Source: Candidatus Omnitrophota bacterium | Lineage (GTDB): Bacteria; Omnitrophota; Gorgyraeia; 2-01-FULL-45-10 | NCBI GenBank assembly: GCA_020057115.1 | Contig: JAGVGJ010000001.1 | Span: forward strand, 12,164 to 76,163 | DNA length: 64,000 nt | Reading direction: 5' to 3' | Shown: piece by piece, positions 1,596-56,515 of the stretch | How positions within the stretch are numbered: the first letter of the stretch is position 1 | Layout: each line of letters opens with the position of its first letter | Notes under the pieces: model-generated | The model's database searches: none | Seen by the model: only the letters and a program-made list of their open reading frames with translations | Told to the model about the DNA's origin: nothing | Program-made: the position numbers and the translations under genes

Positions 1596-1733
1596 CCTCT
1601 CGGGATGGGAAAGGTGTCTTTACGCGAACGTTCCATTCCCAGAGGGAATGTCACTCGGAAGGGCGCGATTTTCGTTGAAAAATAGCGCCCTTCGACGTCG
1701 CTCCAAGACACCTTTCCCATCCCTCGGGGGCCC
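1596..1733. repeat. Palindromic repeat element, copy A (~135 bp, + orientation)
   Basis: Outer arms cgggatgggaaaggtgtc...gacacctttcccatcccg with an internal GC hairpin (gggcgc...gcgccc) and a cttcgacgtcgctcc core. Near-identical copies at 45655-45794 and, inverted, at 1957-2081 and 56391-56515. Confidence 0.8.
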
Positions 1734-1745
1734 CTTTGAAGGCCG

Positions 1746-1956
1746 AAAAATCTCCTCAGCAAAGAGGCTTTCGAGATGAGGGACGTTTCTAAATCTGATC
1801 TTGGGACGTTTGTAAATCTAATCCTGCACCTGTCCCCGATCATTTTAGGGGACAGGTGTGATCTTAAATTTAGGGACACGTGCAGGATGGAATTTAGAAA
1901 CGTCCCTGAATTGCCTGCCAGTTTCCTTCTCTAGATTTTCGGCTCATGAGCGCCCT
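1746..1956. repeat. Central long imperfect palindrome between inverted copies A and B
   Basis: Perfect 16-bp arms agggacgtttctaaat/atttagaaacgtccct and inner 11-bp arms cacctgtcccc/ggggacaggtg, with further nested imperfect arms. Together with copies A and B it forms a ~500-bp foldback. Confidence 0.7.
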
Positions 1957-2081
1957 CGAGGGGCGGGGTGTCCTGGAGCGACGTCGAAGATCGCTAACTT
2001 ACAACGAAGTTAGCGATCTTCCGAGCGAACTTTCCTGCGGAAAGAGAGCGTTCGCGGAAGGACACCCCGTCCCGAGAGGGC
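1957..2081. repeat. Palindromic repeat element, copy B (inverted relative to A)
   Basis: gagcgacgtcgaag...cgagcgaactttcc...gacaccccgtcccgagaggg is the reverse orientation of the copy-A motif blocks; the internal hairpin sequence differs. Confidence 0.75.
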
Positions 2082-2118
2082 TCAAGAGCTGCCGAAAATA
2101 TTTATCATTAATTTTTTC

Positions 2119-2147
2119 TTGAATTGCGCGGGATCATATGGTAAACT
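2119..2147 (+). promoter_or_regulatory. Sigma70-like promoter (TTGAAT-17-TAAACT) giving a leaderless or near-leaderless transcript for the 2154 ORF
   Basis: -35 TTGAAT at 2119-2124, 17-nt spacer, -10 TAAACT at 2142-2147. The ATG at 2154 lies 7 nt after the -10 and has no Shine-Dalgarno. Confidence 0.3.
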
Positions 2148-2153
2148 TTTGCC

Positions 2154-2348
2154 ATGAGCAAGTATATAGGAATAGCAATAGGCGTCGCTCTTACTGTCCT
2201 GGGGCTTGTAGCTTTGGTGGGATGGTGGAGCGATTTTATTTCTATAATCAAAGGCTCGATACCCGCAATAATAATATTCGCCGGCATCATCGCTCTGATC
2301 GCCGGGATAAGTCAGCTGCAGGACGAACTGGTAGATAAAAAGAAGTAA
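2154..2348 (+). CDS. Small (64 aa) two-TM-helix membrane protein, hypothetical
   Basis: ORF with two strongly hydrophobic segments and a charged C-terminal tail (DELVDKKK). Promoter-like signal immediately upstream. Confidence 0.4.
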   Translation: MSKYIGIAIGVALTVLGLVALVGWWSDFISIIKGSIPAIIIFAGIIALIAGISQLQDELVDKKK

Positions 2349-2429
2349 AATTCCCGCGTTCTATCCCGTCGGTAAGCACTACTAATTGTGTTTTTCTCCG
2401 CCCAGACCACTACCCATAGTATTTTTTTC

Positions 2430-2457
2430 TTGACATTCCCGAAAGATAGGGTATACT
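2430..2457 (+). promoter_or_regulatory. Sigma70-like promoter for nrdJ (TTGACA-16-TATACT)
   Basis: -35 TTGACA at 2430-2435 and -10 TATACT at 2452-2457. Confidence 0.45.
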
Positions 2458-2486
2458 AACCACGGTATTATTTAAATGACTAGATC

Positions 2487-2524
2487 CTTCGAAAATGCAG
2501 GCGCTTTAAAACGCTTTTCGAAAG
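2487..2524 (+). promoter_or_regulatory. Nested palindrome/hairpin in the nrdJ 5' leader
   Basis: Arms ccttcgaaaa ... ttttcgaaagg enclose the inner palindrome GCGCTTTAAAACGC. Located between the promoter and the nrdJ start. Confidence 0.35.
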
Positions 2525-2559
2525 GGCGATATAGATAACGATACAGTAAACCGGGGGCA

Positions 2560-4875: not shown

Positions 4876-4933
4876 AGTATTGCCAAAATAGGATTTTGTG
4901 GTAGAATTATAACAATAACACAAAGGAGGTTTT

Positions 4934-5608: not shown

Positions 5609-5630
5609 TAGATTTTATAGTATTGATAAT

Positions 5631-5762: not shown

Positions 5763-5852
5763 AACTGATCAAAGGTAAACCCGGTGAAAGCCGGCGTCAC
5801 AAAACTATAGGGTCTAAATCTCTGGAGACAGGGACAAGACAGCCAGTTGCCG
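5763..5852 (+). promoter_or_regulatory. Candidate c-di-GMP-I (GEMM) riboswitch aptamer
   Basis: GGTAAAC then a ccggt-GAAA-gccgg hairpin (GNRA tetraloop), then CGTCACAAAAC, then GGGTCTAAAT (tetraloop-receptor-like), then GACAGCCAGTTGCC. This lines up with the GEMM-I consensus as recalled from memory, not from a run search: GGCAAACC-P1(GAAA)-GACGCAAAGCC...GGGUCUAA...AGCCnGnnGCC. Confidence 0.55.
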
Positions 5853-5885
5853 TTTAAGCTTACGTCAAAGCCTGGATTGAATATC

Positions 5886-5925
5886 GATCCCGATCTGCGT
5901 TCAAGACGTAGGTCGGGATTTTTTA
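5886..5925 (+). terminator. Intrinsic terminator; likely expression platform of the riboswitch
   Basis: 11-bp stem cccgatctgcg/cgtaggtcggg (two G-U pairs), loop ttcaaga, followed by attttttat. Confidence 0.6.
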
Positions 5926-5993
5926 TTGAGCAGATAATTTATGGAGCCCGAAGGGCGACGTAAAGTATAGGCCGAAGGCCGTCTGCGAAATAA

Positions 5994-6049
5994 TCCCGAA
6001 ATATACCGCTTAAAGGCACATAGTATGCAATACAAGATATATTTCGGGA
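5994..6049 (+). promoter_or_regulatory. 12-bp inverted repeat (TCCCGAAATATA ... TATATTTCGGGA, 32-bp spacer) upstream of the micro-ORF; candidate operator or leader hairpin
   Basis: Arms at 5994-6005 and 6038-6049. Ends about 20 nt before the ATG at 6071. Confidence 0.4.
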
Positions 6050-6070
6050 TATCACCATAAGGAGGGTTGT

Positions 6071-6172
6071 ATGGAATATAAATATGAACCAACGCAGCCG
6101 GAAGACGAAGGACAGTGCGATGAGTATTGTCCGTGCTGCGGTTATACGCAGTGCATATGCGGCAACGGATAG
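6071..6172 (+). CDS. Unannotated 33-aa Cys-rich micro-ORF (MEYKYEPTQPEDEGQCDEYCPCCGYTQCICGNG)
   Basis: Strong SD AAGGAGGG ending 4 nt before the ATG. Acidic N-terminal half and a C-terminal half with 6 Cys (CxxxCxCCxxxxCxC). Absent from the ORF track because it is under 60 aa. Confidence 0.45.
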   Translation: MEYKYEPTQPEDEGQCDEYCPCCGYTQCICGNG

Positions 6173-6199
6173 CATCATAAAATTTTCTTCGCCTTAGTT

Positions 6200-6400
6200 C
6201 GGCGCCCCACCCAATGGTAGGTCTGTCGCTTGACGTTCGTTCGGATTAGCCATCCTCACTCACTCCGGAAAAATTTTGATGGCCGGTCAACCCTGACTAT
6301 AAGCAAAACTATAGACAGGTTTGCCCGGCCTTTCTATATCGGCATAAAGTATCAAAATTTTTCAACGGCCGCTCCAGACCCACCATTGGGTTGGGCGCCG
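6200..6400. repeat. 26-bp terminal-inverted-repeat-bounded ~200-bp element with an internal 22-bp hairpin (MITE-like or structured RNA)
   Basis: cggcgccccacccaatggtaggtctg at 6200-6225 against cagacccaccattgggttgggcgccg at 6375-6400 (2 mismatches). Internal arms ggccggtcaaccctgactatag / ctatagacaggtttgcccggcc. Confidence 0.5.
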
Positions 6401-6579
6401 GCCTATGTCCTTATGGCAAGAACAAACCCCGAACCCAATTTAGCACATTGAAAATGTTAGGCCTTTTGGAAGTAGAAAAATGGTTATATTTAACAATTTT
6501 TTGATAATAAAAGGACCGAGGATGTTTGAGGCCTCCTCCGGAGGCCGAGTTCCGCAAGCCGCCGTAGTATTCACCAGGC

Positions 6580-6614
6580 GGCAGCCCCCGAAGGGGGCTG
6601 GTCCCCATTTTTCT
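6580..6614 (+). terminator. GC-rich hairpin plus T-run (terminator-like; possible 3' end of a small RNA)
   Basis: agcccccgaagggggct hairpin followed by ggtccccatttttc. A second hairpin, ggcctcctccggaggcc, lies just upstream. Confidence 0.35.
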
Positions 6615-6793
6615 ACTGAACAAAAGGCCGACCCTAGAGTTTAATTAGAGGGGGAACATTTTCAGTGATAAATTGGGTTCAGGGTTTGGGATATCTCGTA
6701 TAGAGTGCGGGATATCCCTACGTTCGCGTAAGATACCCCGCCTTTTTGGAACACAGGTATCTCGAGAGGCCCGCCTTAAGATGCGTGAAATTT

Positions 6794-6825
6794 TGGTTTC
6801 GAGCCGCATGCTTTTGTGTTAGAAT
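6794..6825 (+). promoter_or_regulatory. Candidate extended -10 promoter (TGtTAGAAT) for purH
   Basis: TG at 6817-6818 and TAGAAT at 6820-6825. RBS GGAGG and GTG start at 6850. Confidence 0.3.
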
Positions 6826-6849
6826 AGATGCCTAAATTGGAGGTAATTT

Positions 6850-8433
6850 GTGAAGGTAAGGCGCGCGCTTATAAGCGTTTCGGATAAGGCCGGACTTGAA
6901 GAGCTGGTCAAGGCATTGAATAAATTCAATGTCGAGATACTTTCAACGGGCGGGACCGCAAAGGCCATAAGGGCGCTTGATATACCGGTTAAGGATGTTT
7001 CGGAATATACCGGGTTCCCGGAGATGCTTGACGGAAGAGTAAAGACGCTTCATCCCAAGATACACGGCGGCCTATTGGCCCTAAGAGACTCTAAAGAGCA
7101 TATGGATACCGCCAAGAAGCATGATATCGGCATGATCGACATGGTCGTCGTCAATCTGTATCCATTCGAGAAAACCGTGGCAAAGCCAGGAGTGAAGCTC
7201 GAAGAGGCGATAGAGAATATAGATATAGGCGGGCCGTCCATGCTTAGGAGCGCGGCGAAGAATCACCGGTCTGTCTGCGTTATATGCGACCCGGCGGATT
7301 ACGGCAGGGTGATCGAAGAGCTGGAGAGGTCCGGCGGCAGCATGTCGGAAGCTCTTTTGACAGAGCTTGGGATCAAGGTGTTCGGCAGGACCGCAGAATA
7401 TGACGCGGCGATATATAATTATCTCACGAAAAATACGAGCCAGGGGCCAGGGGCCAGGGGCCAGGGTCCAGAAGAATTTCCAGAAGTACTGAGCCTGAGT
7501 TTCAAGAAGCTACAGGACTTAAGATACGGCGAGAATCCGCACCAGAAGGCCGCGTTCTATAGAGATGCCTCCATAAATGAATCGAGCGTAGCCGATTCCG
7601 TCCAGCTCCACGGAAAAGAGCTATCATTCAATAATATAATAGACCTTAATGCCGCGCTTGAGATCGTAAAAGAGTTCGACGAGCCGGCGGCCGCGATAAT
7701 AAAACACACAAACCCCTGCGGCGCAGCGACAGCAAAGACTTTAAAAGAAGCGTATCTCAATGCGCTCGACTGCGACCGCTTGAGCGCTTTTGGGAGCATA
7801 GTAGGGTTCAATAGAACCGTCGACATGGAACTTGCAAAAACGATACTGGAGGAGGCTGATTTCGTCGAATGCATGATCGCCCCGTCCTATGATGTAAAAG
7901 CCATCGAAGCGCTGAAGGTCAAAAAAAACCTGCGGCTTATCGAGGTGAAGAACTTTGCCGCAAAACCGTCCGGAAGCAATAAAGACATGAAGAAAGTCAC
8001 AGGCGGTCTTCTGGTGCAGGACAAGGATGCGGCGAGGATAAAGGAGCCCGATCTCAAGATAGTTACAAAGATCGCTCCCACGAAGGAAGAGATGCGCTCG
8101 CTCCTTTTCGGGTGGACCGTGGCAAAACATGTCAAGTCCAACGCGATAGTATTTTCCCAAGGCACTAAGACCATAGGCGTCGGCGCAGGCCAGATGTCGA
8201 GGGTCGACTCGGTGATGATAGCGGCAAAGAAAGCGGGATCCAGGGCCAAGGGCGCGACGCTGGCAAGCGACGCCTTCTTTCCGAAAGAGGATGGAGTTGA
8301 AGAGGCCGCCAGATCCGGCGTAAAAGCTATCATACAGCCCGGCGGGTCGATACGCGATAAAGAGGTCATCGCCTCAGCCGACAAGCTTGGCCTTGCGATG
8401 GTATTTACCGGCACCAGGCACTTCAAGCATTGA
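6850..8433 (+). CDS. purH: Bifunctional AICAR transformylase / IMP cyclohydrolase
   Basis: 527 aa with MGS-like and AICARFT domains (ISVSDKAGL..., TGGTAKA...). GTG start. Carries an in-frame GC-repeat segment at 7441-7470 (QGPGARGQGP). Confidence 0.95.
   Translation: MKVRRALISVSDKAGLEELVKALNKFNVEILSTGGTAKAIRALDIPVKDVSEYTGFPEMLDGRVKTLHPKIHGGLLALRDSKEHMDTAKKHDIGMIDMVVVNLYPFEKTVAKPGVKLEEAIENIDIGGPSMLRSAAKNHRSVCVICDPADYGRVIEELERSGGSMSEALLTELGIKVFGRTAEYDAAIYNYLTKNTSQGPGARGQGPEEFPEVLSLSFKKLQDLRYGENPHQKAAFYRDASINESSVADSVQLHGKELSFNNIIDLNAALEIVKEFDEPAAAIIKHTNPCGAATAKTLKEAYLNALDCDRLSAFGSIVGFNRTVDMELAKTILEEADFVECMIAPSYDVKAIEALKVKKNLRLIEVKNFAAKPSGSNKDMKKVTGGLLVQDKDAARIKEPDLKIVTKIAPTKEEMRSLLFGWTVAKHVKSNAIVFSQGTKTIGVGAGQMSRVDSVMIAAKKAGSRAKGATLASDAFFPKEDGVEEAARSGVKAIIQPGGSIRDKEVIASADKLGLAMVFTGTRHFKH
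7441..7470. repeat. GC-rich oligo-repeat (GGGGCCAGG x3 + GGGTCCAG) in-frame inside purH
   Basis: caggggccaggggccaggggccagggtccag, encoding a Gly/Pro/Gln-rich inter-domain linker. Confidence 0.8.
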
Positions 8434-9743: not shown

Positions 9744-9744
9744 T

Positions 9745-11181
9745 ATGATCGATCGCAATAATACCGAAGATACTATAGCAGCGATATCGTCTCCTATCGG
9801 CGAGGGCGGGATAGGCATAGTCCGCCTGAGCGGTCCGGGAGCGCGCGATATCGCTGATAAGATATTCCTGTCTAAAATCGGCAAGAAACCGTCGACATTC
9901 AAATCACATACCATGCATTATGGCCATATCGTTTCCACCCCGGACCCCGGACCCCGGCCCCTGGAACCTGGAACCTGGACCCTGGACCCTAAGATCATCG
10001 ACGAAGTCCTCCTGACCGTTATGCGCGCCCCGAAGACATATACGAAAGAGGATATAGTCGAGATAAACTGCCATGGCGGCATCCAGGCGCTCGGAGATGT
10101 CCTGGACCTTTGTATCAAAAGGGGCGCGCGGGTAGCAGAGCCAGGCGAATTCACCAGGAGGGCATTCATTAACGGCAGGATAGACCTGGCGCAGGCGGAG
10201 GCAGTCATCGACACTATACGCGCAAAGACCGAAGGCTCCCTTTCGGTAGCCATGAGCCAGCTCGAAGGCGAGCTTTCAGGAAAAATAAACGCATTGCGGG
10301 ATAAGATCATAGGTATAGCCTCGCACGTCGAAGCATCGATAGATTTTCCGGAAGAAGAGCTGGATTTATTCACTGAAGAGACGCTCAAGAGAGTGGGCGA
10401 GGCATTGGTCGAGCTGAAGGGCCTTATAGACTCATCTCGTGAAGGCATGATATTCAGGGATGGCATCCTCGCAGTGATATGCGGCAAGCCCAATGCCGGC
10501 AAATCTAGCCTCATGAACCTCCTTCTTAAAAGGGACAGGGTGATAGTGACCCCGATACCGGGGACTACGCGCGATGCCGTGGAGGAGATGATAAATTTAA
10601 AAGGCATACCGATAAGGCTTGTCGATACCGCAGGGATAGCTGACACCAAAGATGTCATTGAAAAAGAAGGCATGAGGCGATCTAAAAACTATCTCGACAG
10701 GTCTGACGTCGCGCTTCTGGTGTTGGATGGCTCGACTGAGCTGGACAGGGAGGACCTGGATATAATAAAATTGGTAGAGAAAAAGAAAAAAGTTGTTATA
10801 ATAAACAAGACAGACCTGTCTCCCGCAATAAGTGCAAAAGATGTGAAGGCGTATTTTAAGGACGAGCATATAATCGAGATATCTGTCGAAAAGAGAAAGA
10901 ATATAGACGTCCTTGAAAAAGCGATCGTGGATCTGGTGTGGAGCGGCCGCGTCCATGATAAAGAGCATGCGATAGTCGCAAATACAAGGCATAAGGCGCT
11001 CATCGAAAAGGCCTATAATAATATGGGCGCCGTCAAAAAGGCGATGGATAAAGGCTCCTGGCCGGAACTTGTTTCGATAGACCTCAAAGAAGCGGTCTTT
11101 AACCTTGGTCTGGTGGTCGGGAAATCAGTGTCGGACGATATATTGAATAAGATATTCGAACAATTCTGCATAGGAAAGTAG
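9745..11181 (+). CDS. mnmE: tRNA modification GTPase MnmE/TrmE
   Basis: 478 aa with G-domain GKPNAGKSSL and C-terminal CIGK. In-frame GC-repeat segment at 9947-9990 (PDPGPRPLEPGTWTLDP). Confidence 0.9.
   Translation: MIDRNNTEDTIAAISSPIGEGGIGIVRLSGPGARDIADKIFLSKIGKKPSTFKSHTMHYGHIVSTPDPGPRPLEPGTWTLDPKIIDEVLLTVMRAPKTYTKEDIVEINCHGGIQALGDVLDLCIKRGARVAEPGEFTRRAFINGRIDLAQAEAVIDTIRAKTEGSLSVAMSQLEGELSGKINALRDKIIGIASHVEASIDFPEEELDLFTEETLKRVGEALVELKGLIDSSREGMIFRDGILAVICGKPNAGKSSLMNLLLKRDRVIVTPIPGTTRDAVEEMINLKGIPIRLVDTAGIADTKDVIEKEGMRRSKNYLDRSDVALLVLDGSTELDREDLDIIKLVEKKKKVVIINKTDLSPAISAKDVKAYFKDEHIIEISVEKRKNIDVLEKAIVDLVWSGRVHDKEHAIVANTRHKALIEKAYNNMGAVKKAMDKGSWPELVSIDLKEAVFNLGLVVGKSVSDDILNKIFEQFCIGK
9947..9990. 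repeat. GC-rich oligo-repeat (opposite orientation: CCGGACCCC / CCTGGACCC units) in-frame inside mnmE
   Basis: ccccggaccccggaccccggcccctggaacctggaacctggaccctggaccct. Confidence 0.8.
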
Positions 11182-14929: not shown

Positions 14930-15724
14930 ATGGACTTTATCGAAAACATAGGAAGGACAGTACTTGACACCTTCAGGGCCACAAGGGATGTCATGGCGCT
15001 GTTATTCGAAACTCTATACTGGCTCGTCATGGGGCCCTTCAAGAAAAAATTCTCCAAGCGCGAAGGCATATTCACTCAGATGGCATATGCCGGCGTAGAT
15101 TCGGTCATCATCGCCTTCTTCGTCTCATTCTTCACCGGGGTCGTCATAGCCATGCAGTCCGCTTACCAGCTCCAGAGGTTTGGCGCAAACATCTACGTGG
15201 CGCCGATGGTCGCTATAAGCATCGCAAGGGAGCTCGGGCCCGTATTGACGTCGCTTGTCGTCGCAGGAAGGGTCGGGGCAGCTATCACCGCAGAGCTCGG
15301 GACCATGAAGGTCTCCGAGCAGATAGAGGCGCTCGATACGATGGCGCTTAATCCTATAAGGTTCCTCGTAGTGCCGCGTTTTCTGGCGCTCTTGATCATG
15401 CTTCCGTGTCTTGTCATGTTCTCGGACCTCATGGGAATAATGGGAGGATTTTTGGTAGGCGTTTTTAACCTTCGCCTTAATCCATACAGGTATATCACAT
15501 TCTCTTTCCAATTCATGGTCTGGAAGGATGTCTGGACAGGCCTCGTGAAGAGCGCGGTCTTCGCCATGATAATAACTATGGTCGGATGCTATATGGGGCT
15601 TAAGACTAAGGGCGGGGCGGAGGGCGTCGGCAAATCAACGACAGCGAGCGTCGTCACAAGTTTCATATTGATAATATTGTTTGATTCGATATTGACGTGC
15701 GTGTTCTATTTCTTCAATACATAA
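14930..15724 (+). CDS. mlaE: Mla (phospholipid ABC transporter) permease
   Basis: 264-aa multi-TM MlaE family. A 76%-similar paralog lies at 63068-63853. Confidence 0.85.
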   Translation: MDFIENIGRTVLDTFRATRDVMALLFETLYWLVMGPFKKKFSKREGIFTQMAYAGVDSVIIAFFVSFFTGVVIAMQSAYQLQRFGANIYVAPMVAISIARELGPVLTSLVVAGRVGAAITAELGTMKVSEQIEALDTMALNPIRFLVVPRFLALLIMLPCLVMFSDLMGIMGGFLVGVFNLRLNPYRYITFSFQFMVWKDVWTGLVKSAVFAMIITMVGCYMGLKTKGGAEGVGKSTTASVVTSFILIILFDSILTCVFYFFNT

Positions 15725-15729
15725 TAATA

Positions 15730-15759
15730 GGGTCCAGGGGCCAGGGTCAAGGGTCCAGG
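15730..15759. repeat. GC-rich oligo-repeat, intergenic between mlaE and mlaF
   Basis: gggtccaggggccagggtcaagggtccagg. Confidence 0.8.
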
Positions 15760-21403: not shown

Positions 21404-23907
21404 TAGAAGATACGAGACAATATCCATTTAATGAGATAGAGTCCAAGTGGCAGGAGTACTGGCGCCAGATGAGGCTCTTTAATGTAGATACCAAAGAATA
21501 CAAGAACAAATACTACTGCCTCATGATGTTCCCGTATCCGTCGGCAGCGCTGCATGTGGGCCACGGCAGGAACTATATAATAGGCGATGCCGTCGCGCGC
21601 TATAAGATGATGCGGGGATATGATGTCCTGACCCCCATGGGATTTGACGCATTCGGCCTTCCCGCAGAGAATGCCGCTATTAAGAGCGGCGTCCATCCCG
21701 AGACATCCACGCTTAATAATATAAGCACCATGAGGCGGCAGTTCAGCCAGTGGGGCGTAGAATACGACTGGGACAGGGAGGTGGTATCATGCCTTCCGGA
21801 TTATTATAAATGGACCCAGTGGATATTCCTTAAGCTTTACGGGAAGGGCCTTGCCTACAAGAAGAAAGCGTTCGTTAACTGGTGCCCTTCATGCAAGACT
21901 GTGCTTGCCAACGAGCAGGTCGTTGACAATGCCTGCGAAAGATGCTCGACAGAAGTCACCCAGAAGGACCTTGAGCAGTGGTTTTTCAAGATAACCCATT
22001 ATGCCGACAGGCTCTTAAAGGATATCGGCAAGCTTACGGAATGGCCCGAGCGCGTCAAGACAATGCAGTGCAACTGGATAGGGAAGAGCGAAGGCGTGGA
22101 GATAGATTTTAAGATAGACGGCTCAAGCGATACGCTAAAGTGTTTCACCACAAGGATAGACACGATATTCGGCGCCACCTTTATAGCCCTCGCCCCGGAG
22201 CATCCTCTTGTAGAAAAGTTCGTCAAGGGATCGAAGGAAGAAAAGGCCGTAGCCGAGCTTGTGCGGAAGATGCGGGATGAATCGAAGATCGAGCGCTCTG
22301 ACGCGAATGTCGAGAAAGAAGGCGCATTTACGGGTAAATATGTGATCAACCCTGTAAACGGCAAGAAGGTCCCGATATGGGTCGCCAATTATATACTCAT
22401 GGAATACGGCACGGGTGCCATTATGGCAGTCCCTGCCCATGACCAGAGGGATTTTGAATTCGCTAAGAAATACAAACTGCCGATCGAGGTAGTTATCGAC
22501 GACCCGAAGAGCCCTCTTAAGGTCGAGGCCATGAAAGAGGCCTATATGGGCGAGGGCATCATGGCTAATTCCGCACAGTTCAATGGCCTTGATTCAAGCG
22601 TTTCCATAACGAAGATAGCCGAGTTTTTTGAAGAAAAGGGTTATGGAAAGAGGACTACTCAATATAAGTTGAGGGATTGGCTCATCTCCCGCCAGAGATA
22701 CTGGGGAGCGCCCATACCGATAATATATTGCAATAAGTGCGGGGTCGTGCCTGTCCCGGAAAAGGACCTGCCGGTGCTATTGCCTAAGAATGTGGAGTTC
22801 AGGCCTACCGGCGAGTCTCCGCTCAAATTCTCTGAGAGTTTTGTCAATACAAAGTGCCCGAAATGCGGCGGCCAGGCGACGAGAGAGACCGACACCATGG
22901 ACACGTTCGTCGATTCAAGCTGGTATTACTTGCGTTATATAACGCCTAAACTGGATCAAAAGCCGTTTGATGCAGAACTGGTAAATAAGTGGCTGCCGGT
23001 CGATCAGTACATCGGCGGCGTTGAGCATGCGATACTGCATCTATTGTATTCCAGGTTCATAACGAAATTCTTAAAAGATATCGGATGCGTGGGGTTTGAC
23101 GAGCCGTTTAAGAACCTGTTCACCCAGGGCATGATAACAAAGAATGGCATCAAGATGTCCAAGTCGAAGGGTAACACCGTATCCCCGGATGATCTGATAG
23201 CCAGTTACGGGGCCGATACAGTGAGGTTATATACGCTTTTTATCGGTCCACCGGAGAAAGATGCCGAATGGTCGGATCGGGGAGTGGAAGGAGCGTATCG
23301 GTTCCTCGGGAGGGTGTGGAGGCTGGTAGAGAAGGGTCCAGGGTCCAGGGTCTCCCGCCCGGCAGACATAGAGGGGCGGGACAGGCAGGGTCCAGGAAAA
23401 GATAAAGAAGATGCCACTTTGAGACGCAAGATCCACTCCACCATCAAAAAAGTCACCGAGGATCTGGACGGAGGATTCCATTTCAATACCGCCATAAGCG
23501 CCGTAATGGAACTCGTCAATGAAACATATGACCGCTTAGCTCAGTCTACGGATGGTTCGTCTGGGGGTGGTGCGGTAGCCGAGGCCATCGAGACTGTTGT
23601 TATGCTCCTCTCGCCATTCGTCCCGCATATCGCCGAAGAGATGTGGCAGAAGCTCGGGAAAAAGAACAGCATATTCAGGGCGAGCTGGCCGCCTTATGAC
23701 GAGAAGGCGCTCGCAGCCGACGTATTTACGATGGTCATACAGGTGAACGGAAGGATGCGGTCCAAGATCGATGTGCCGGCCGGCATGAAAGACGACAAGA
23801 TAAAAGAGATAGCGCTATCCGACCCGAAGGTCCAGCCGTTCATCAAGGACAAGACCGTAAGACAGGTAGTGGTGGTCCCGAAGAAGTTAGTCAACATAGT
23901 AGCTTAA
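21400..23907 (+). CDS. leuS: Leucyl-tRNA synthetase
   Basis: 835 aa with HVGH (HIGH) and KMSKS motifs. In-frame GC-repeat segments at 23333-23355 and 23388-23396. Confidence 0.95.
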   Translation: MIEDTRQYPFNEIESKWQEYWRQMRLFNVDTKEYKNKYYCLMMFPYPSAALHVGHGRNYIIGDAVARYKMMRGYDVLTPMGFDAFGLPAENAAIKSGVHPETSTLNNISTMRRQFSQWGVEYDWDREVVSCLPDYYKWTQWIFLKLYGKGLAYKKKAFVNWCPSCKTVLANEQVVDNACERCSTEVTQKDLEQWFFKITHYADRLLKDIGKLTEWPERVKTMQCNWIGKSEGVEIDFKIDGSSDTLKCFTTRIDTIFGATFIALAPEHPLVEKFVKGSKEEKAVAELVRKMRDESKIERSDANVEKEGAFTGKYVINPVNGKKVPIWVANYILMEYGTGAIMAVPAHDQRDFEFAKKYKLPIEVVIDDPKSPLKVEAMKEAYMGEGIMANSAQFNGLDSSVSITKIAEFFEEKGYGKRTTQYKLRDWLISRQRYWGAPIPIIYCNKCGVVPVPEKDLPVLLPKNVEFRPTGESPLKFSESFVNTKCPKCGGQATRETDTMDTFVDSSWYYLRYITPKLDQKPFDAELVNKWLPVDQYIGGVEHAILHLLYSRFITKFLKDIGCVGFDEPFKNLFTQGMITKNGIKMSKSKGNTVSPDDLIASYGADTVRLYTLFIGPPEKDAEWSDRGVEGAYRFLGRVWRLVEKGPGSRVSRPADIEGRDRQGPGKDKEDATLRRKIHSTIKKVTEDLDGGFHFNTAISAVMELVNETYDRLAQSTDGSSGGGAVAEAIETVVMLLSPFVPHIAEEMWQKLGKKNSIFRASWPPYDEKALAADVFTMVIQVNGRMRSKIDVPAGMKDDKIKEIALSDPKVQPFIKDKTVRQVVVVPKKLVNIVA
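23333..23396. repeat. GC-rich oligo-repeat segments in-frame inside leuS
   Basis: gggtccagggtccagggtctcc ... cagggtccagg, encoding EKGPGSRVSRPADIEGRDRQGPGK. Confidence 0.75.
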
Positions 23908-45530: not shown

Positions 45531-45586
45531 TTTTATGTCACCTCCTTTCAAATCCTTTAATTTGGGGATTTTGCACCCCTACTATA

Positions 45587-45616
45587 TAAGACGCTCAAAA
45601 TGCCCAAATTGTTGCA
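45587..45616 (-). promoter_or_regulatory. ECF-sigma-type promoter (TGCAAC-N17-CGTCTTA), copy 1, upstream of spoVG-yraN-comM
   Basis: Minus-strand -35 TGCAAC (plus 45611-45616) and -10 CGTCTTA (plus 45587-45593). Part of a 43-bp repeat also found at 47193-47240. Confidence 0.5.
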
Positions 45617-45654
45617 AATTATTTTAAAATATTTTTCGGATGTGCGCTTCTTCC

Positions 45655-45794
45655 CCCTCTCGGGATGGGTAAGGTGTCTTTCCGCGAACGCTCCATTCTC
45701 GGAGGGAATGTCGCTCGGAAGGCCGCAATTTTCGGTGAAAAATCGCGGCCTTCGACGTCGCTCCAAGACACCTTACCCATCCCTCGGGGGCCCC
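45655..45794. repeat. Palindromic repeat element, copy C (same orientation as A)
   Basis: cgggatgggtaaggtgtc...cttcgacgtcgctccaagacaccttacccatccctcg, about 90% identical to copy A. Confidence 0.8.
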
Positions 45795-45871
45795 GCATCG
45801 AGGACCGAAAAAGTAGGAGGGTGGAACTGGAGGGGGAGATTTACTTCTTGAATTATTTCACGGACCGTACT

Positions 45872-46711
45872 ATGATATTTCGTGATATGGGGATATTTGA
45901 GAAAGCGCAGATAGATTTTCTCACCGGGTTCTTCTTAAGGGAATCCTTCGGCCAGTTCCTCGAAAAGGCTATGCGCGAGGCCACGGCCACAAGCGGCGTA
46001 GTTACGCTTGCGCTAGTTGACCTTGACCACTTCAAAAATTTCAACGATAAATTCGGCCATGACTTCGGCGACGAGATCCTGAAGTATTCCGCCAGCACCA
46101 TCAGGCTCACTATGGACGAGAACCAGACCTATTTCTTCCGTTACGGAGGCGATGAATTTATCGTGGTCTTTGCAGGCAAGACGCAGAAAGAGGCCCTCCA
46201 GCTGTTAAAATACTGCAGGCATAACCTCCTCCACAGGCCTTTCCTCTTAAAGAATAAATTCCAGAAGATCACCATGAGTATCGGCGTCGCAAGCTTCCCG
46301 CATGACGCCCAGACCGTGGAGGACCTGATCGCGAAGGCTGATAATGCCATGTACTATTCCAAACGCCACGGACGCAACCGCATAACAATGTGGAGCTCTA
46401 TAAGCCATCTCAAGGCGCGAAATTATTTTATCCTGTTCGGCACCCTGGCCATCATGGTGCTTTCCACTTTCGTAGCGGCATATGTGCCGCCGATCAAAGA
46501 AAGCATAATGGCCTTTATCGGTAACATCAAAGAGCTCCGAAAGGTCTCTTTTGACAAGATCGTGCTTAAGAGCGGCGCTGTGTTTGAAGGCAGGATAGTG
46601 AACGAGGATGCCACTACTATATTTTTGCAATTGAACCTAAAAGAGGGGGAAGGGTCGCTCAAGCTTGACAAGTCTAAGGTGTCAAAGATAATACGCGCCA
46701 AATCTCGTTAG
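45872..46711 (+). CDS. GGDEF-domain diguanylate cyclase with a C-terminal TM helix and ~90-aa tail
   Basis: RYGGDEF motif. Start set at ATG 45872 because the track ORF extends upstream into the palindromic repeat. Promoter TTGAAT-17-TATGAT immediately upstream, so possibly leaderless. Confidence 0.7.
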   Translation: MIFRDMGIFEKAQIDFLTGFFLRESFGQFLEKAMREATATSGVVTLALVDLDHFKNFNDKFGHDFGDEILKYSASTIRLTMDENQTYFFRYGGDEFIVVFAGKTQKEALQLLKYCRHNLLHRPFLLKNKFQKITMSIGVASFPHDAQTVEDLIAKADNAMYYSKRHGRNRITMWSSISHLKARNYFILFGTLAIMVLSTFVAAYVPPIKESIMAFIGNIKELRKVSFDKIVLKSGAVFEGRIVNEDATTIFLQLNLKEGEGSLKLDKSKVSKIIRAKSR

Positions 46712-46739
46712 GGTCAAGGGGCCAGGGTCCGGGGTCCAG
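46711..46739. repeat. GC-rich oligo-repeat immediately after the GGDEF gene stop
   Basis: gggtcaaggggccagggtccggggtccag. Confidence 0.8.
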
Positions 46740-47187: not shown

Positions 47188-47849
47188 TTTTGTCCCCCTA
47201 CTATATAAGACGCTAAAAACGGGCAAATTGTTGCAAAAAAAGTTAAAAAACATTTTAAAGCGGCGCGCAGCCTCTCTTTTCCCCGTCGGACGTGGCTTGA
47301 AACAGTGTTCTTAGGCATGCGGGTCATCTTCGCTATCTCGTGGTATTTCTTGCCGTGCAGCAGGTGCAGTTTGATCACCAATTTTTCCACGCTTGGCAAG
47401 TCCTCTATGGACTGGTCTATCTTTTTTGACAGCTCCTGCCTGGAGAGTTCGTCTGCGGGCACAGAGCCGCCGGCAAAAAGGCTAGAGATCAAGTCGACCT
47501 CATCCCCCGTATCCGTATGCGGCAGTATCTCATATCGAACCCCGCGCCTGGCCTTCCTCAAATGCGACACAGCCGCATTCTGCGCGAGCATCGAGATCCA
47601 GCAGGGGAGGCTTGAGATATTGTCGAGAGAAGCCATCTTATCGCTGCGCCACATCGAAGAGAGCGCATCCTGCAGGATATCATCGACGTCATGCGATGTG
47701 GTCTCAAAGCCGCACCGCCTCAGGCGTTTTTCGATCGATATCCGCATGAGGCGGGAATACTTTTTCGTGAAGGCTTCCCAAGCCGCGATATCCCGCGCGG
47801 CACAGCCTTCGATAATGGCCTTATCGTCTTCAAAACGTTCGGTAGGCAT
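47184..47849 (-). CDS. ECF-type RNA polymerase sigma-70 factor
   Basis: Region 2 and region 4 signatures (...LQDALSSMW..., ...LHGKKYHEIAKMTRMPKNTVSSHVRRGKERL). Start taken at the internal ATG (MPTERFED). Confidence 0.8.
   Translation of the reverse strand: MPTERFEDDKAIIEGCAARDIAAWEAFTKKYSRLMRISIEKRLRRCGFETTSHDVDDILQDALSSMWRSDKMASLDNISSLPCWISMLAQNAAVSHLRKARRGVRYEILPHTDTGDEVDLISSLFAGGSVPADELSRQELSKKIDQSIEDLPSVEKLVIKLHLLHGKKYHEIAKMTRMPKNTVSSHVRRGKERLRAALKCFLTFFATICPFLASYIVGGQK
47206..47235 (-). promoter_or_regulatory. ECF-sigma-type promoter (TGCAAC-N17-CGTCTTA), copy 2, inside the 3' end of the sigma gene just upstream of the anti-sigma gene
   Basis: Minus-strand -35 from plus 47230-47235 and -10 from plus 47206-47212. 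39/43 identical to copy 1. Confidence 0.45.
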
Positions 47850-51000: not shown

Positions 51001-52867
51001 CGAGATGTACTGCTATTCCAGGGACGAGATACGCTCTCTGGGCATAGACATGCTAAGTTCAGGCGAGCATATCTATACGAAAGACGGCGCGGACAGCTGG
51101 ATACAGAGAGCCTCTAACGGAGAGCCGCAGATAGTAGAGTGGCTTTCGAAAGATAAGGCCGGCCGCCTATTCTGGGTCGAGATAAACCTGCGCAGGGCCA
51201 TAGTCGGCTCCAAATACTGCCTTCTTGCGGTAGTGCGCGACATAACTGAGCGCAAAGAGTCCGAAGAGAAGCTGAGAGAGAGCGATCTCAGATTCAGGAA
51301 AGCCGTATTCGATGCGACCTTCCCGATAATGATCCATTCGGAAGACGGCGACGTCATGCTTCTCAATAAGGCCTGGACGGAATTATCCGGTTATACCCAG
51401 GAAGACATACCGACCACCTCTGTTTGGGCGGAGAAAGCCTATGGCAGTAAAAAGGCCATCGTAAAAGCCGATATCGACAAGTTGTACAAGCTGGATGAGA
51501 GGGTCAAGGAGGGCGAGTATGTCATAACCGCCAAGACCGGCGAAAAGAGGGTATGGGATTTCAGCGCCGCCCCTCTCGGGGCCCTTCCTAACGGCAAGCG
51601 TATCGTCATGTCTATGGCGATGGATATCACCGAGCGTAAGGGCGCGGAGAATCAGATCAAGGAGCTTAACAGGGAGCTCCTTAAGACGAATAACATGCTT
51701 AAGCAGCTGGCACTCAAGGATTCCCATACCGGGCTTTACGGCCACAGGTATCTGGCGGAGGCGATCCTCAAGGAATTTTCCAGGGCCAAGAGAGAGGCCA
51801 CGCCACTCTCAGTCATAATGCTCGATATCGATTATTTTAAATCGATAAACGATGTCTACGGCCATCAGTTCGGCGATATTGTTTTAAAGCAGTTCGCTGC
51901 GCACCTGAAAAAGGCGGTGCGGATATACGACATAGTCATACGTTACGGCGGAGAGGAGTTCATAATAATATCTCCGGGTTCGGACAGGGCGGGCGCCCTG
52001 GTGCTCGCCAGGAGGATATTGAATACTGTGAGCCTGGCCCGTTTTGGCGACAAAGAGCATAGCGTGAAAATGAAGATGAGCGCGGGCGCGGTCTCTTACC
52101 CGGAGGACCGGGCCGTGAAGGCCATGGACCTCGTTAATTTCGTCGACAAGATACTGAATAAGGCCAAGGAAGAAGGCGGCAACAGGGTATGCTCGTCTGT
52201 CGACATGAAGAGGCCCAAGGCATCCGTTACCATGGAAGAGGAAGAGGATATAACGGACGTAAAGCTCCTCAAAGAAAAGATAGAGAAGCTTACCAAGCGC
52301 GGCAACCAGAGCCTTATCGAGGCCATATTCGCCTTCGCGAAGACCATAGAAGTTAAGGATAATTATACGGGAGAGCATGTCGAAAAGGCCGTCCATTACG
52401 CGACCGAGATAGCCAAGGAGCTCAATCTTTCAAAGAACGAGATAGAGCTGATAAAGAAGGCCGCGGCGCTTCATGATCTCGGCAAGGTGGGGATAAGCGA
52501 TAAGATACTGCGCAAGAAGTCAAAGCTTACCGAAAAAGAGTTTGAAGAGATAAAGAGGCATTCGCAGATAGGTGTCGATATATTGAGGCCCGTCCACTTC
52601 ATGCATGACATAATACCCCTGATCCTCCACCATCATGAAAGATGGGACGGTAAAGGATATCCCGACAAGCTTAGAGGCGACGAGATACCGATCGGCGCGC
52701 GCATAATCTCCGTGTCAGACGCCTATGACGCTCTTACGTCGAACAGGCCTTACCGTAAAGCATACCGCAAGAACAAAGCCATCGAGATCATAAAGAGGGC
52801 TTCCGGGACGATGTATGACCCCAGGATCATAAATGCCTTCTTCAAAGTCCTGAAAGATGGAAAATAG
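48071..52867 (+). CDS. Large multi-domain c-di-GMP signalling protein: multiple PAS domains, GAF, coiled coils, GGDEF, HD-GYP
   Basis: 1598 aa with repeated PAS signatures, RYGGEEF (GGDEF) and HDLGKVGI...HHHERWDGKGYPD (HD-GYP). Confidence 0.85.
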   Translation: MAGPYSRLFEFTRDGIYSYTFADGKILSANHGFIRILDLDCKPPEVEGRLLKDVMTYVEKEGTVRRLLEEKGELHNYEYHFKTLKGEDRWVIYDSFLSVDPVTGERVVETIVKDITDRKKKEDEARRYRAHLEELVKERIEELKALNEQLRREVAERKEAEERLAKINSCFLKFGSDSLENIKLLTALLGETMGATCALYNRLEEGMLCSIGQWNTPSDYNAIDKPEGHLCYDVIRHGTDIPFIVNNLPGTPYAATDSNVARYNLRTYVGVAVKSGGRYIGSLCAVYQKDVILTEDDKKLIGLIATAVGIEEERLRMEGDILESKEYLSKIINSIGDPVFVKDRQHRLILVNDAECRLAGHLREDVTGKTDYDFFPKEQVDIFWKKDEMVFETGEENINEETITDAQGVTHTIITKKTRYIDPEGNKFIVGIIRDITDRKATEEQLQQNYDIQKAVNSLLNLSLRDMPLEEFLKNTLDLIMSIPRLSLESRGGIFLTEDHSDTLRLKVHNGLTEQIQKACGSVPFGKCLCGKAALTKKTQFAASIDERHETTYEGIIPHGHYCVPVLWADKVLGVINFYLKEGHPYKKSEEDFLVAVANTLAGVIERKRVEEELKKSEASLAEAQRIARLGNWEWDIKANSIKWSAEVYRIFGRAPSDFNGTLEAFLEYIHPADRGFVKEALDDALHKQENYSIDHSILLPNAVERIVHEQGEITYDGNGEPVRMVGTVNDITERKIMEGELRKHRDHLEDLVKQRAAQIIEVNESLQREVAERKRVEEALRESGENYKTLFEHSPIALFQEDCSGMKKYIDSLKATSGADLKKYFEDHPEVLKECIEAIKIADANKQALMLFDARDKEELYRAVKNILIADAYSDFAEAIVASSEGKYALEHETSIHTLTGAKKYCTVKISTVAGSETTWAKVLISMVDITERKLVEEALEISEANYRAIFDTANDAIFVFDIKTGVIIDANRKGCEMYCYSRDEIRSLGIDMLSSGEHIYTKDGADSWIQRASNGEPQIVEWLSKDKAGRLFWVEINLRRAIVGSKYCLLAVVRDITERKESEEKLRESDLRFRKAVFDATFPIMIHSEDGDVMLLNKAWTELSGYTQEDIPTTSVWAEKAYGSKKAIVKADIDKLYKLDERVKEGEYVITAKTGEKRVWDFSAAPLGALPNGKRIVMSMAMDITERKGAENQIKELNRELLKTNNMLKQLALKDSHTGLYGHRYLAEAILKEFSRAKREATPLSVIMLDIDYFKSINDVYGHQFGDIVLKQFAAHLKKAVRIYDIVIRYGGEEFIIISPGSDRAGALVLARRILNTVSLARFGDKEHSVKMKMSAGAVSYPEDRAVKAMDLVNFVDKILNKAKEEGGNRVCSSVDMKRPKASVTMEEEEDITDVKLLKEKIEKLTKRGNQSLIEAIFAFAKTIEVKDNYTGEHVEKAVHYATEIAKELNLSKNEIELIKKAAALHDLGKVGISDKILRKKSKLTEKEFEEIKRHSQIGVDILRPVHFMHDIIPLILHHHERWDGKGYPDKLRGDEIPIGARIISVSDAYDALTSNRPYRKAYRKNKAIEIIKRASGTMYDPRIINAFFKVLKDGK

Positions 52868-52905
52868 CGGCCTTCGACGTCGCTCCAGGGTGCTCTACCC
52901 CGCAT
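52866..52905. repeat. Truncated copy of the palindromic repeat element
   Basis: gcggccttcgacgtcgctccagg matches the internal right half of copies A/C. Confidence 0.5.
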
Positions 52906-52931
52906 GGATCTAAGCGCTTCCGTCTTTCGTA

Positions 52932-52960
52932 TTGACACCCTATCTTGCCCAATATATAAT
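52932..52960 (+). promoter_or_regulatory. Consensus sigma70 promoter (TTGACA-17-TATAAT) for lysS
   Basis: -35 at 52932-52937 and -10 at 52955-52960. Confidence 0.55.
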
Positions 52961-52984
52961 CGATTAAAAATATGAAGGGTAGAT

Positions 52985-54445: not shown

Positions 54446-54446
54446 G

Positions 54447-55628
54447 ATGAACTGGCAACTGTTCGTTAGCTTCAGATATCTTACCTCAAAACGCAAAGAG
54501 AAGTTCATATCCATAATAAGCTTCATATCGATAATCGGCGTCGCCATAGGCGTCGGGGCCCTTATCATAGTCCTCGGCGTCATGAGCGGGTTCGACAGTG
54601 AGCTTAAAGAGAAGCTGATAGGCACGACTTCGCACATATCGGTCGAGTCCGAATACGGCATGGCTCCTACCGCAGAATTCCTTTCGAAGATAACCGGGAC
54701 AAAACACGTTACGGCGGCCTCCTTCTTTGTCAACGGGCAGGGGCTTATCCGGCGCAATGAGGATGCGGTCGGCGTTATATTGAAAGGCATAGTCCCGCAA
54801 GACGAAGTCAAGGTGACAAAGCTTGGCGAGTATCTGAAGCGGGGCACTCTTGATATCGGCAAGGACGGTATGGTCGTCGGAAGCGAGCTGGCTTCAAGGT
54901 TCGGCCTGAAGCTTGGCGATAAGGTCAACGTGATAACATCCGCTGAGTCGAAAGGCAAAGAGTTCCGCGTCGTCGGCGTATTCACGTCCGGCATGTATGA
55001 ATATGACGCCAACATGGCTTATATAGACATAGGCCGCGCAGAAGAGCTGTTTAACGTACCCGGCCTCGTGAGCGGGGCTACGGTGAAGATAGACGATGCC
55101 ATGAATGCCCCAGAGGTGAAGGCCTCGCTGATACAACAGATGCGCGGGCTTGCCATGGTAAGGACATGGATGGATATGAACAAGAACCTCCTGTCGGCGC
55201 TGCAGCTTGAGAAGACCGTGATGTTCATAATACTGACGCTCATAGTCATGGTCGCGTGTTTCAATATCGTAAGTACCCTCATCATGACTGTTCTCGAAAA
55301 GACGAAGGATATAGGCATCCTTAAGGCGATCGGCTCGACGAGCGGCAATGTCATGGCCATATTCGCCATGCAGGGAGCCATGATAGGGTTTTTGGGGACA
55401 GCTCTCGGGGCCGCAATAGGAGTCGCGCTCGCATGGCTGCTCAAGACATATAAATTCATAAGCCTGCCGAGCGACATATATTATATAGACAAACTTCCGG
55501 TTAAGCTGGAGCTTCAGGATATAGCGCTCGTAGTCATTTCGAGTTTTCTGATAAGCCTGGTAGCTACTGTCTACCCGTCTTACAAAGCGTCCAAGCTCGA
55601 CCCTGTAGAGGCCTTAAGATATGAGTAA
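54447..55628 (+). CDS. lolC: Lipoprotein-releasing system permease (FtsX/MacB-type)
   Basis: 393 aa with 4 TM helices and a large periplasmic loop. Confidence 0.8.
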   Translation: MNWQLFVSFRYLTSKRKEKFISIISFISIIGVAIGVGALIIVLGVMSGFDSELKEKLIGTTSHISVESEYGMAPTAEFLSKITGTKHVTAASFFVNGQGLIRRNEDAVGVILKGIVPQDEVKVTKLGEYLKRGTLDIGKDGMVVGSELASRFGLKLGDKVNVITSAESKGKEFRVVGVFTSGMYEYDANMAYIDIGRAEELFNVPGLVSGATVKIDDAMNAPEVKASLIQQMRGLAMVRTWMDMNKNLLSALQLEKTVMFIILTLIVMVACFNIVSTLIMTVLEKTKDIGILKAIGSTSGNVMAIFAMQGAMIGFLGTALGAAIGVALAWLLKTYKFISLPSDIYYIDKLPVKLELQDIALVVISSFLISLVATVYPSYKASKLDPVEALRYE

Positions 55629-56292
55629 CGCATTAGTCGCTGCAAGAGGATTATCCAAGACCTATACGAACGGCGCTAAACAGGTCAGGGCCGTGAATGG
55701 GATCGATCTCGAGATAGGAAAGGGCGAGGCGCTTGCCATAGTGGGCCCGTCGGGCGCGGGGAAGTCCACGCTCATGCATCTATTGGGCGGGCTTGATATG
55801 CCGACGCACGGGAAGGTCTTATTCGATAATGTCGATATCTACTCGCTCTCTGACAAGAACCGCGCGAAGGTGCGCAATTCGCGCGTGGGTTTCGTCTTCC
55901 AGTTCTACCATCTTCTGCCGGAGTTCACGGCTCTTGAGAATGTGATGCTTCCCGGGATGATACAAGGAGACGCTTCCATGCTTAAGGAACGGTCCGCCGG
56001 GCTTTTAAAAGCGGTCGGCCTTGAGAATCGTATGGCCCACAGGCCGGGAGAGCTTTCCGGAGGGGAGTCCCAAAGGGTGGCCATAGCAAGGGCGCTCATA
56101 AACGAACCTGCTATAATCCTTTGCGATGAACCTACGGGAAATCTTGATTCCAAGACCAGCCAGGCCATTTATGAGCTATTGATAGAATTGAAGGATAAGA
56201 AAGGCATGACCATAGTAGTTGTGACGCACGACGAAAAGCTTGCGGCAAAGATGGATCGCCAGATACATATGAGAGATGGCAAGCTGGTGTAG
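55621..56292 (+). CDS. lolD: Lipoprotein-releasing system ATP-binding protein
   Basis: Walker A GPSGAGKST, LSGGESQR, Walker B. Confidence 0.9.
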   Translation: MSNALVAARGLSKTYTNGAKQVRAVNGIDLEIGKGEALAIVGPSGAGKSTLMHLLGGLDMPTHGKVLFDNVDIYSLSDKNRAKVRNSRVGFVFQFYHLLPEFTALENVMLPGMIQGDASMLKERSAGLLKAVGLENRMAHRPGELSGGESQRVAIARALINEPAIILCDEPTGNLDSKTSQAIYELLIELKDKKGMTIVVVTHDEKLAAKMDRQIHMRDGKLV

Positions 56293-56324
56293 GGGGTAGG
56301 GGGAAAACAGGATTTACGGAGTAC

Positions 56325-56351
56325 GGCCGGAGCGATCCGGCCTTCTTTTTT
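56325..56351 (+). terminator. Rho-independent terminator after lolD
   Basis: ggccgga-gcga-tccggcc hairpin followed by ttcttttttcc. Confidence 0.65.
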
Positions 56352-56390
56352 CCAGCTTCCCCTTTAAATTTTTCGGCCTATGGATGCCAT

Positions 56391-56515
56391 TGAGGGGTAA
56401 GGTGTCCTGGAGCGACGTCGAAGGGCGCAATCTTTCAGAGAAGATTGCGCCCTTCCGAGCGAACTTTCCTCTGGAAAGAGAGCGTTCGCGCAAGGACACC
56501 TTACCCCTCAAGGGC
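56391..56515. repeat. Palindromic repeat element, copy D (same orientation as B)
   Basis: gaggggtaaggtgtcctggagcgacgtcgaag...ccgagcgaactttcc...caaggacaccttacccctc. Confidence 0.8.

Follow-up and report, generated by a model that had tools for sequence, protein, structure and literature searches.

The 64,000-nucleotide stretch of a Candidatus Omnitrophota genome analysed here (the window; contig JAGVGJ010000001.1, positions 12,164 to 76,163) carries a repeated palindromic element in four full copies, A to D, and one truncated copy, E. These copies probably belong to a family of interspersed repeats that is lineage-restricted and made of small, palindromic, non-coding and non-autonomous units, of the kind represented by miniature transposable elements with inverted repeats (MITEs) and by REPINs, the hairpin-forming doublets of repetitive extragenic palindromic (REP) sequences. 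This reading is supported by the occurrence of both orientations, the location of copies in dispensable gaps between a terminator and a promoter, presence/absence differences between relatives, the coexistence of two sequence subtypes, the existence of decayed copies, and the breaking of assemblies within the element.

Copies A (1574-1749, most conserved segment 1594-1734) and C (45633-45811, conserved segment 45654-45794) lie on the plus strand and form subtype 1, copies B (1936-2098) and D (56370-56534) lie on the minus strand and form subtype 2, and copy E (52856-52907, plus strand; nhmmer E = 2.6e-8) is a 3' relic in which nothing is left but the invariant core, the 3' part (one half) of inner hairpin 2 and an outer arm in a degraded state. 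All five were found where a first-pass annotation, made from the letters alone, had placed them, both by reading the regions and by an unbiased repeat search of the window. The same search gave 91% identity between A and C across 141 nt, close to the 90% first estimated, 76% identity between B and D across 165 nt, and 75-83% reverse complementarity between A/C and B/D across 109-118 nt, in agreement with the opposite orientation proposed for B and D; inverted arms of 30-33 nt were detected inside each copy. The 16-mer CTTCGACGTCGCTCCA is present exactly in all five copies, against a chance expectation of 0.57 matches with up to three mismatches, and a count of five was reached in none of 100 shuffles. 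With filters off, a covariance model built on the 100-nt core scored copies A, B, C and D at 117.8, 118.6, 115.3 and 121.8 bits, respectively, with the best unrelated match in the window at 18.7 bits, and the census obtained with this model and nhmmer comprised the four full copies and the fragment, with nothing more in the 64 kb. The G+C content of the core is 54-58%, and thus not AT-rich. Since the dispersed copies differ from each other by 9-25%, they do not stem from a recent local duplication.

Copy B is inverted relative to copy A, with 186 bp from the end of A to the start of B. A further palindrome of about 130 nt (1777-1909), unique in the window and unrelated to the element, sits exactly between the two; it contains GGGACGTTTSTAAATCT three times and an inner hairpin of 12-13 bp, and folds with z = -5.6. 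The spacer 1570-2100 therefore consists of three palindromes in a row, which together make an inverted repeat of about 530 bp.

Alignment of the copies with their flanks showed that the four full units run from a left terminus TTTTCGG to a right terminus CCGAAAA and measure 163-179 bp, so that the length of about 135 bp first given to the element proved too short, once this outer inverted repeat is counted. The termini sit about 15-20 nt outside the long stem. Pairs of TTTTCGG and CCGAAAA within 260 nt surround only these four copies in the whole window and are therefore part of the element; the possibility that they represent a pre-existing target palindrome was rejected, as no empty pair occurs in the window. 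Each unit is organized in four layers: the conserved short termini, variable subterminal spacers, a long and nearly perfect outer stem of 19-25 bp, and an asymmetric centre with two hairpins. The outer stem is 4 bp longer in subtype 1 than in subtype 2, which includes, besides B and D, a copy found on a metagenome contig (L005, described below). The first part of the centre reads TT-N-C-GCGAACG and is followed by hairpin 1 (6-7 bp); in the second part, TC-R-CTCGGAAG opens hairpin 2 (15-bp stem, 6-nt loop) and CTTC-GACGTCGCTCCA closes it. The junction motifs GCGAACG, CTCGGAAG and GACGTCGCTCCA, unpaired in the predicted fold, are invariant in all five sequences compared (A, B, C, D and L005), and the invariant core includes the 8-bp palindrome CGACGTCG.

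The folds predicted for these units are very stable on both strands. Cores of 135-141 nt reach -77 to -86 kcal/mol, with z values of -7.4 to -12.3 relative to shuffles, and extended units reach -90 to -107 kcal/mol; the core of copy A folds at -82 kcal/mol (z = -9.2) and its extended unit at -98.8 kcal/mol, and copy B gives a z of about -8. In a gap-free alignment of 112 columns comprising A, B, C, D and L005, standard pairs occupied 98.4% of the 190 cells defined by 38 pairs and five sequences. Both sides had changed in 11 of the 38 pairs, of which four are located in the outer stem, two in hairpin 1 and five in hairpin 2. None of 500 shuffles was as good as the observed covariation, and sliding the 3' partners by 1-3 columns left only 0-1 pairs with both sides changed and reduced pairing to 37-53%. 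The compensatory variation noticed in the inner hairpin by the first-pass annotation is thus real and extends to the outer stem and hairpin 1, and the outcome that would have spoken against a conserved fold, namely a lack of covariation, was not observed. The four-base junction helix never varies, and GCGA may pair with TCGC at positions 86-89 or 39-42 of the 100-nt core alignment, both options fitting the data. It had also been argued that compensation indicates selection on structure in RNA or in cruciform DNA. The covariation does support the fold; compensation alone, however, is no argument for an RNA function, because it has also been reported for REPINs, which are mobile DNA (PMC3116915).

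The family also occurs outside the window, in several related lineages of Omnitrophota; confinement to the window had been named as an outcome that would refute the proposal of a mobile or structured family. A scan of JGI metagenomes with the strict pattern GCGNNCTTCGACGTCGCTCCARG returned one true copy, on contig L005 (Ga0315297_10459484), which scores 123.6 bits with the covariance model and shows compensatory changes of its own in the outer stem and in hairpin 2; its right terminus is not recognisable. The promoter downstream of this copy is that of a comF-family gene, and the homologues of this gene also belong to Omnitrophota. At the end of the same contig (L005 1-50), about 110 nt past the element, there are three or four TCCACAGC repeats that resemble DnaA boxes. 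A contig from an ENA sample (L014) begins inside the same element copy as L005, and recognisable but degenerate copies were found at comF loci with 70-74% ComF identity in L015, where hairpin 2 and the core are missing, and in L016, which begins inside the element (nhmmer E = 0.014). Two contigs (L014 and L016) thus start within the element, as assemblies do at repeats. A scan with the strict pattern of one genome per GTDB species, in which a looser pattern might catch diverged copies, gave four matches, all of them chance occurrences in high-GC sequence lacking a surrounding element, and three viral scans returned no copy. This scarcity constitutes weak evidence, because the window's own contig was not recovered from these collections either; coverage of this lineage in the accessible collections is poor, and the family is rare there.

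Comparison with relatives revealed sites at which the element is present in one lineage and absent from others. In the loci L006-L010, which derive from three relatives with 80-85% identity in lysyl-tRNA synthetase (LysRS) and share the gene order around lysS, the covariance model with filters off found no element in any syntenic locus. The spacer between the ABC-ATPase and aminotransferase genes, which holds a terminator and copy D, measures 303 bp in the window and 61 bp in L007, L008 and L009, where the stop codon runs directly into the conserved promoter. Similarly, the spacer upstream of comF measures 63 bp in L011-L013 and contains the same promoter as in L005, where the element is present. 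From these comparisons of sequence we infer, rather than demonstrate, insertion at the orthologous sites. The gap upstream of lysS, which holds copy E in the window, contains in L006, the closest relative retrieved (about 9795-9990), a different palindrome of about 190 bp, with TTAGGGG/TAGGG repeat arms around an AT-rich hairpin. Unrelated palindromes have thus settled in the lysS-upstream gap of different lineages, and such gaps seem to accumulate palindromic DNA repeatedly.

The genes of the window are ordinary chromosomal ones. Pfam scans of about 50 open reading frames (ORFs) identified ribonucleotide reductase, purH, mnmE, leuS, secA, uvrC, clpC, lysS and many genes for cyclic di-GMP (c-di-GMP) signalling, and the lysyl-tRNA synthetase encoded at 52985-54445 matches a protein on an 86-kb NCBI/JGI contig at 100% identity, with many of its closest homologues labelled Candidatus Omnitrophota or Omnitrophica. 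Copy A begins 6 nt past the stop codon (1566-1568) of a glycosyltransferase ORF. Copy C occupies the divergent spacer between spoVG, on the minus strand, and a GGDEF gene, with a promoter-like site scoring 9/12 located 37 nt beyond it. Copy D lies between a terminator-like hairpin (56325-56342), which follows the ABC-ATPase gene, and the promoter of the aminotransferase gene (56553-56581, scoring 11/12), 19 nt beyond the copy. Copy E overlaps the last codons and the stop codon (52865-52867) of an upstream ORF of 1598 aa with PAS, GAF, GGDEF and HD domains, and is followed about 25 nt downstream by a promoter of perfect consensus (52932-52960, 12/12). The early description of all copies as intergenic consequently applies to A, B, C and D, and not strictly to E. 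Copies C, D and E and the L005 copy are situated just upstream of promoter-like sites, 15-37 bp before the -35 hexamers. The genes downstream of the copies are unrelated in function (the ribonucleotide reductase region, GGDEF, lysS, aminotransferase and comF). Nearly all genes of the window are on the plus strand, and the element occurs in both orientations, plus for A, C and E and minus for B and D, which fits insertion at the DNA level better than a strand-specific RNA.

ORFs of 59-96 aa cross the copies, and three of them had been noted to share a peptide. In fact, the peptide reads exactly GKVSWSDVEGRYF in ORF 1589-1879 only; ORF 56384-56593 reads GKVSWSDVEGRNL, the frame in ORF 52750-52938 reads APWSDVEGRYF, and in copy B the frame is broken. 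No homologue of the repeat-frame peptide was found among 5.8 billion proteins in a frame alignment search, which also revealed no further copies annotated as ORFs. On this ground the repeat-spanning ORFs look spurious, as translations of the repeat, and that part of the early description stood. Likewise, the listed ORF 45665-46711 starts inside copy C, and the GGDEF orthologue in L006 measures 278 aa; the N-terminal extension of the listed ORF is probably spurious.

In the proposed mechanism, the units would be non-autonomous DNA that spreads, or once spread, through the action in trans of an enzyme whose gene lies elsewhere in the genome. Such an enzyme would recognise the shape of the hairpin as well as the invariant motifs of the junction, and its substrate would probably be folded single-stranded DNA, as for HUH/RAYT-type transposases. 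By analogy, the stems may be read as shape and the junction motifs as sequence by this putative enzyme, which would explain why the stems compensate alongside a fixed junction. Where RNA polymerase reads through, the 19-25 bp stem would form a strong hairpin of double-stranded RNA, with possible side effects on neighbouring transcripts. The elements are presumably mobile, and in that case an active or recently active mobilising enzyme would be implied.

Several observations weigh against a family of mobile repeats. No consistent direct repeat of at least 3 bp was detected bordering any of the four full copies, so that the target-site duplication expected of MITEs is not visible there. Pfam scans found no transposase, integrase or RAYT/Y1 domain among the approximately 50 ORFs of the window, and no parent insertion sequence (IS) with the element's termini was found. 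The covariation derives from five sequences only, in two subtypes, and only one intact copy was found outside the window. The relatives with empty sites are distant (80-85% LysRS or 78% ComF identity), and their spacers are too diverged for a clean insertion boundary. Three lineages share the element upstream of comF, which could reflect retention by selection and not mobility. Finally, functional structured RNAs are likewise marked by a strongly conserved unpaired core together with covarying helices.

This last point leads to the alternative that survives best, a structured RNA with a function for the host, transcribed by read-through from upstream or from a promoter of its own. It might be a site processed by RNase III, stabilise 3' ends, insulate adjacent units from each other's transcription, or act as a protein-binding small RNA with a three-way junction. 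The very stable folds, the covariation in three helices around invariant junction nucleotides, the proximity of A and E to stop codons, and the persistence of the element upstream of comF in three lineages are all in accordance with such an RNA. In addition, in four of the five extended copies the strand that reads GGAGCGACGTCGAAG is more stable than its complement by 4-10 kcal/mol; the energies lean slightly towards the minus orientation, without being decisive for the strand. However, three copies are on the plus strand and two on the minus strand in a context of plus-strand genes, so that in some transcripts the asymmetric core would appear as its complement. G-U pairs reveal no consistent strand bias either (4/3, 2/5, 2/2, 1/3 and 1/5 in the plus and minus folds of the respective copies). 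Promoter scans found no promoter-like site reading into a copy and terminator scans no terminator-like site at the element ends, and copy D, placed after a terminator-like site and before the next promoter, is probably poorly transcribed DNA. Furthermore, the orthologous sites of relatives lack the element, truncated and degenerate copies are tolerated, and no Rfam family matches. A host-functional RNA thus appears unlikely.

A related and somewhat more doubtful proposal is that the invariant junction (GCGAACG / CTCGGAAG / GACGTCGCTCCA), set between three covarying helices, is not just what is left of a transposon and represents a new structured motif with a dedicated partner. The element would then be either a multi-copy non-coding RNA of Omnitrophota or the folded single-stranded-DNA substrate of a recombinase, in the latter case an undescribed enzyme targeting gaps between terminators and promoters. 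If so, the recurrence upstream of comF in three lineages would reflect site-specific targeting or selection.

Some REP elements and bacterial interspersed mosaic elements (BIMEs) have been proposed to serve the host as DNA sites. A comparable role here, as a binding or cruciform site for a chromosomal protein (a nucleoid-associated protein, gyrase, or a regulator recognising CGACGTCG) upstream of promoters, would agree with the occurrence of either orientation, the distance of 15-37 bp to the -35 hexamers, and the CGACGTCG palindrome in the core. It is nevertheless improbable, given that the downstream genes are functionally unrelated, that relatives keep the same promoters without the element, that compensatory change in stems is not expected of a double-stranded sequence-specific site, and that no candidate binding protein was identified. 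As for a trivial origin, be it in a segmental duplication of local and recent date, in an artefact of assembly or in a family of small genes represented by the GKVSWSDVEGR ORFs, to which only the 59-96 aa frames across the copies lend themselves, it is effectively refuted by the 9-25% divergence, the 55-kb spread, the two orientations, the unrelated flanks, the copy with its own compensatory changes on an independent metagenome contig (L005), the broken frame in B and the search of 5.8 billion proteins, in which this frame had no homologue.

With a family of non-autonomous palindromic repeats as the preferred interpretation, the element was compared with known families. None of the 4227 covariance models of Rfam 15 matched it at the gathering score, and at E < 10 only chance microRNA-hairpin matches far below threshold were obtained over 1500-2600. 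BLAST found no similar sequence among PLSDB plasmids or INPHARED phages, and full-text literature searches returned nothing on the core sequence or on interspersed repeats in Omnitrophota. Ribozymes, riboswitches, 6S RNA, group II introns and omega or bridge RNAs were considered and dropped, in view of the lack of a model match, the lack of an adjacent protein gene and the mixed orientation.

MITEs are defined as non-coding elements shorter than 500 bp, with terminal inverted repeats of about 4-30 bp and flanking direct repeats that fade with age (PMC10969869). The element agrees in length (163-179 bp) and in being non-coding, as its frames are inconsistent and lack homologues; it has terminal inverted repeats (TTTTCGG/CCGAAAA, in all four full copies), with nearly the whole unit also forming an inverted repeat; and its copies are dispersed, with empty orthologous sites in L007-L009 and L011-L013, in relatives of 78-85% protein identity. 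The absent target duplication weakens membership without excluding it, because the copies are 9-25% diverged and direct repeats fade. The Correia elements of Neisseria and the ERIC elements of enterobacteria are similar in many respects: they measure 100-200 bp, are non-coding and intergenic with terminal inverted repeats, occur in both orientations near promoters or gene 3' ends, coexist as truncated and variant subtypes, and would give transcripts whose long and stable hairpins would suit RNase III (PMC10969869). In contrast to them, no target-site duplication was seen for the element and no related IS was found; it is not AT-rich, contains an asymmetric centre with invariant unpaired motifs, and shows compensation along the whole stem. 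Correia elements duplicate TA at their target.

The resemblance to REPINs concerns extragenic hairpin units of about 100 nt or more, lineage specificity and a presumed single-stranded-DNA mechanism. In REPINs, some motifs are highly conserved and the rest is kept mainly as a hairpin by common compensatory changes, and RAYT transposases are believed to move them in the form of folded single-stranded DNA (PMC3116915). Compensatory upkeep of the hairpins was likewise found here (11 pairs, 98.4% paired). In contrast, the element is not one REP doubled, since its centre is composed of two unrelated hairpins and an asymmetric invariant core; it is longer, has a 19-25 bp outer stem, and carries no GTAG tag beside either inner hairpin. 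CGTC does adjoin inner hairpin 2, where ...GACGTC directly precedes the hairpin in the minus orientation, a resemblance only to the CGTC-tagged REPs, for which no dedicated transposase is known. In these REPs the stems measure 8-9 bp and carry A-T pairs at their first two positions, the loops measure 4-5 nt, and a CCA tail is present (Di Nocera et al., 2013; PMC3733652). The stem and loop sizes of the element are unlike those of the CGTC families: it has a 15-bp stem that begins with G-C and a 6-nt loop, and the hairpin stands within a far larger palindrome.

Integron attC sites and the ends of IS200/IS605 elements are substrates in the form of folded single-stranded DNA, in which structure is kept over sequence and short invariant motifs stand by the hairpins. 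The element shares with them a structure more conserved than its sequence and invariant motifs that flank hairpins. It differs from attC sites in the lack of an integron integrase, of a cassette array and of a uniform orientation, and no GTTRRRY-like core sites were noticed; moreover, it is wholly palindromic, whereas IS200/IS605 has two distinct subterminal hairpins. The first-pass label of a MITE/REP-like family is therefore supported as a broad kind, and the repeats are placed as a new family in the broad MITE/REPIN class, the kind being well known, and in neither named family, because the target duplication is missing for strict membership among MITEs and the REP doublet for membership among REPINs.

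Omnitrophota are uncultivated and mostly known from fragmented metagenome assemblies, and their genomes are thought to be streamlined. The practical effects of the element are broken assemblies, as in the two contigs that start inside it, and spurious ORFs and false N-terminal extensions, as in ORF 45665-46711; it could also serve as a lineage marker. Besides, it offers a small and clean case of compensatory evolution in stems set about a junction that never varies; this points to a specific protein or RNA partner.

The window also contains a second class of repeats, made of about four tandem G-rich heptamers (GGGNCCA-like) that fit the canonical G-quadruplex motif (G3N4)x4. At least seven such arrays were located (7442-7470, 9942-9998, 15729-15757, 23333-23354, 34499-34527, 46710-46738 and 59072-59147), both in spacers and in coding regions (purH, mnmE, leuS and the 3' end of prfB), and at 59072-59147 two arrays make a palindrome between mcsB-like and clpC-like genes. 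A c-di-GMP-I riboswitch (5764-5854, 64.6 bits) is followed by about 1 kb without a long ORF (5764-6850), in which a single ORF makes a plausible gene: it is rich in Cys, has 33 codons (6072-6173, MEYKYEPTQPEDEGQCDEYCPCCGYTQCICGNG) and is equipped with a good ribosome-binding site. Beyond it lie several long hairpins, for example at 6270-6342. Position 33484 marks a classical programmed +1 frameshift site (CTT TGA C) of prfB, which encodes release factor 2 (RF2), and ORF 33797-34540 does not share the frame that encodes the N-terminal part of RF2.

Two direct repeats were also detected. The first, of 68 nt and 81% identity (45569-45636 and 47188-47255), includes a minus-strand promoter-like TTGCAA...TATATA, one copy being upstream of spoVG and the other upstream of an ORF that adjoins a gene for a sigma factor of the extracytoplasmic function (ECF) type, and may constitute a shared regulatory region. 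The second, of 300 nt and 70% identity, links 15131-15430, within an MlaE permease gene (14930-15724), to 63257-63556, inside ORF 63068-63853, which occupies the position of the MlaE gene in the syntenic L008 and L009; it probably reflects ordinary paralogous MlaE genes.

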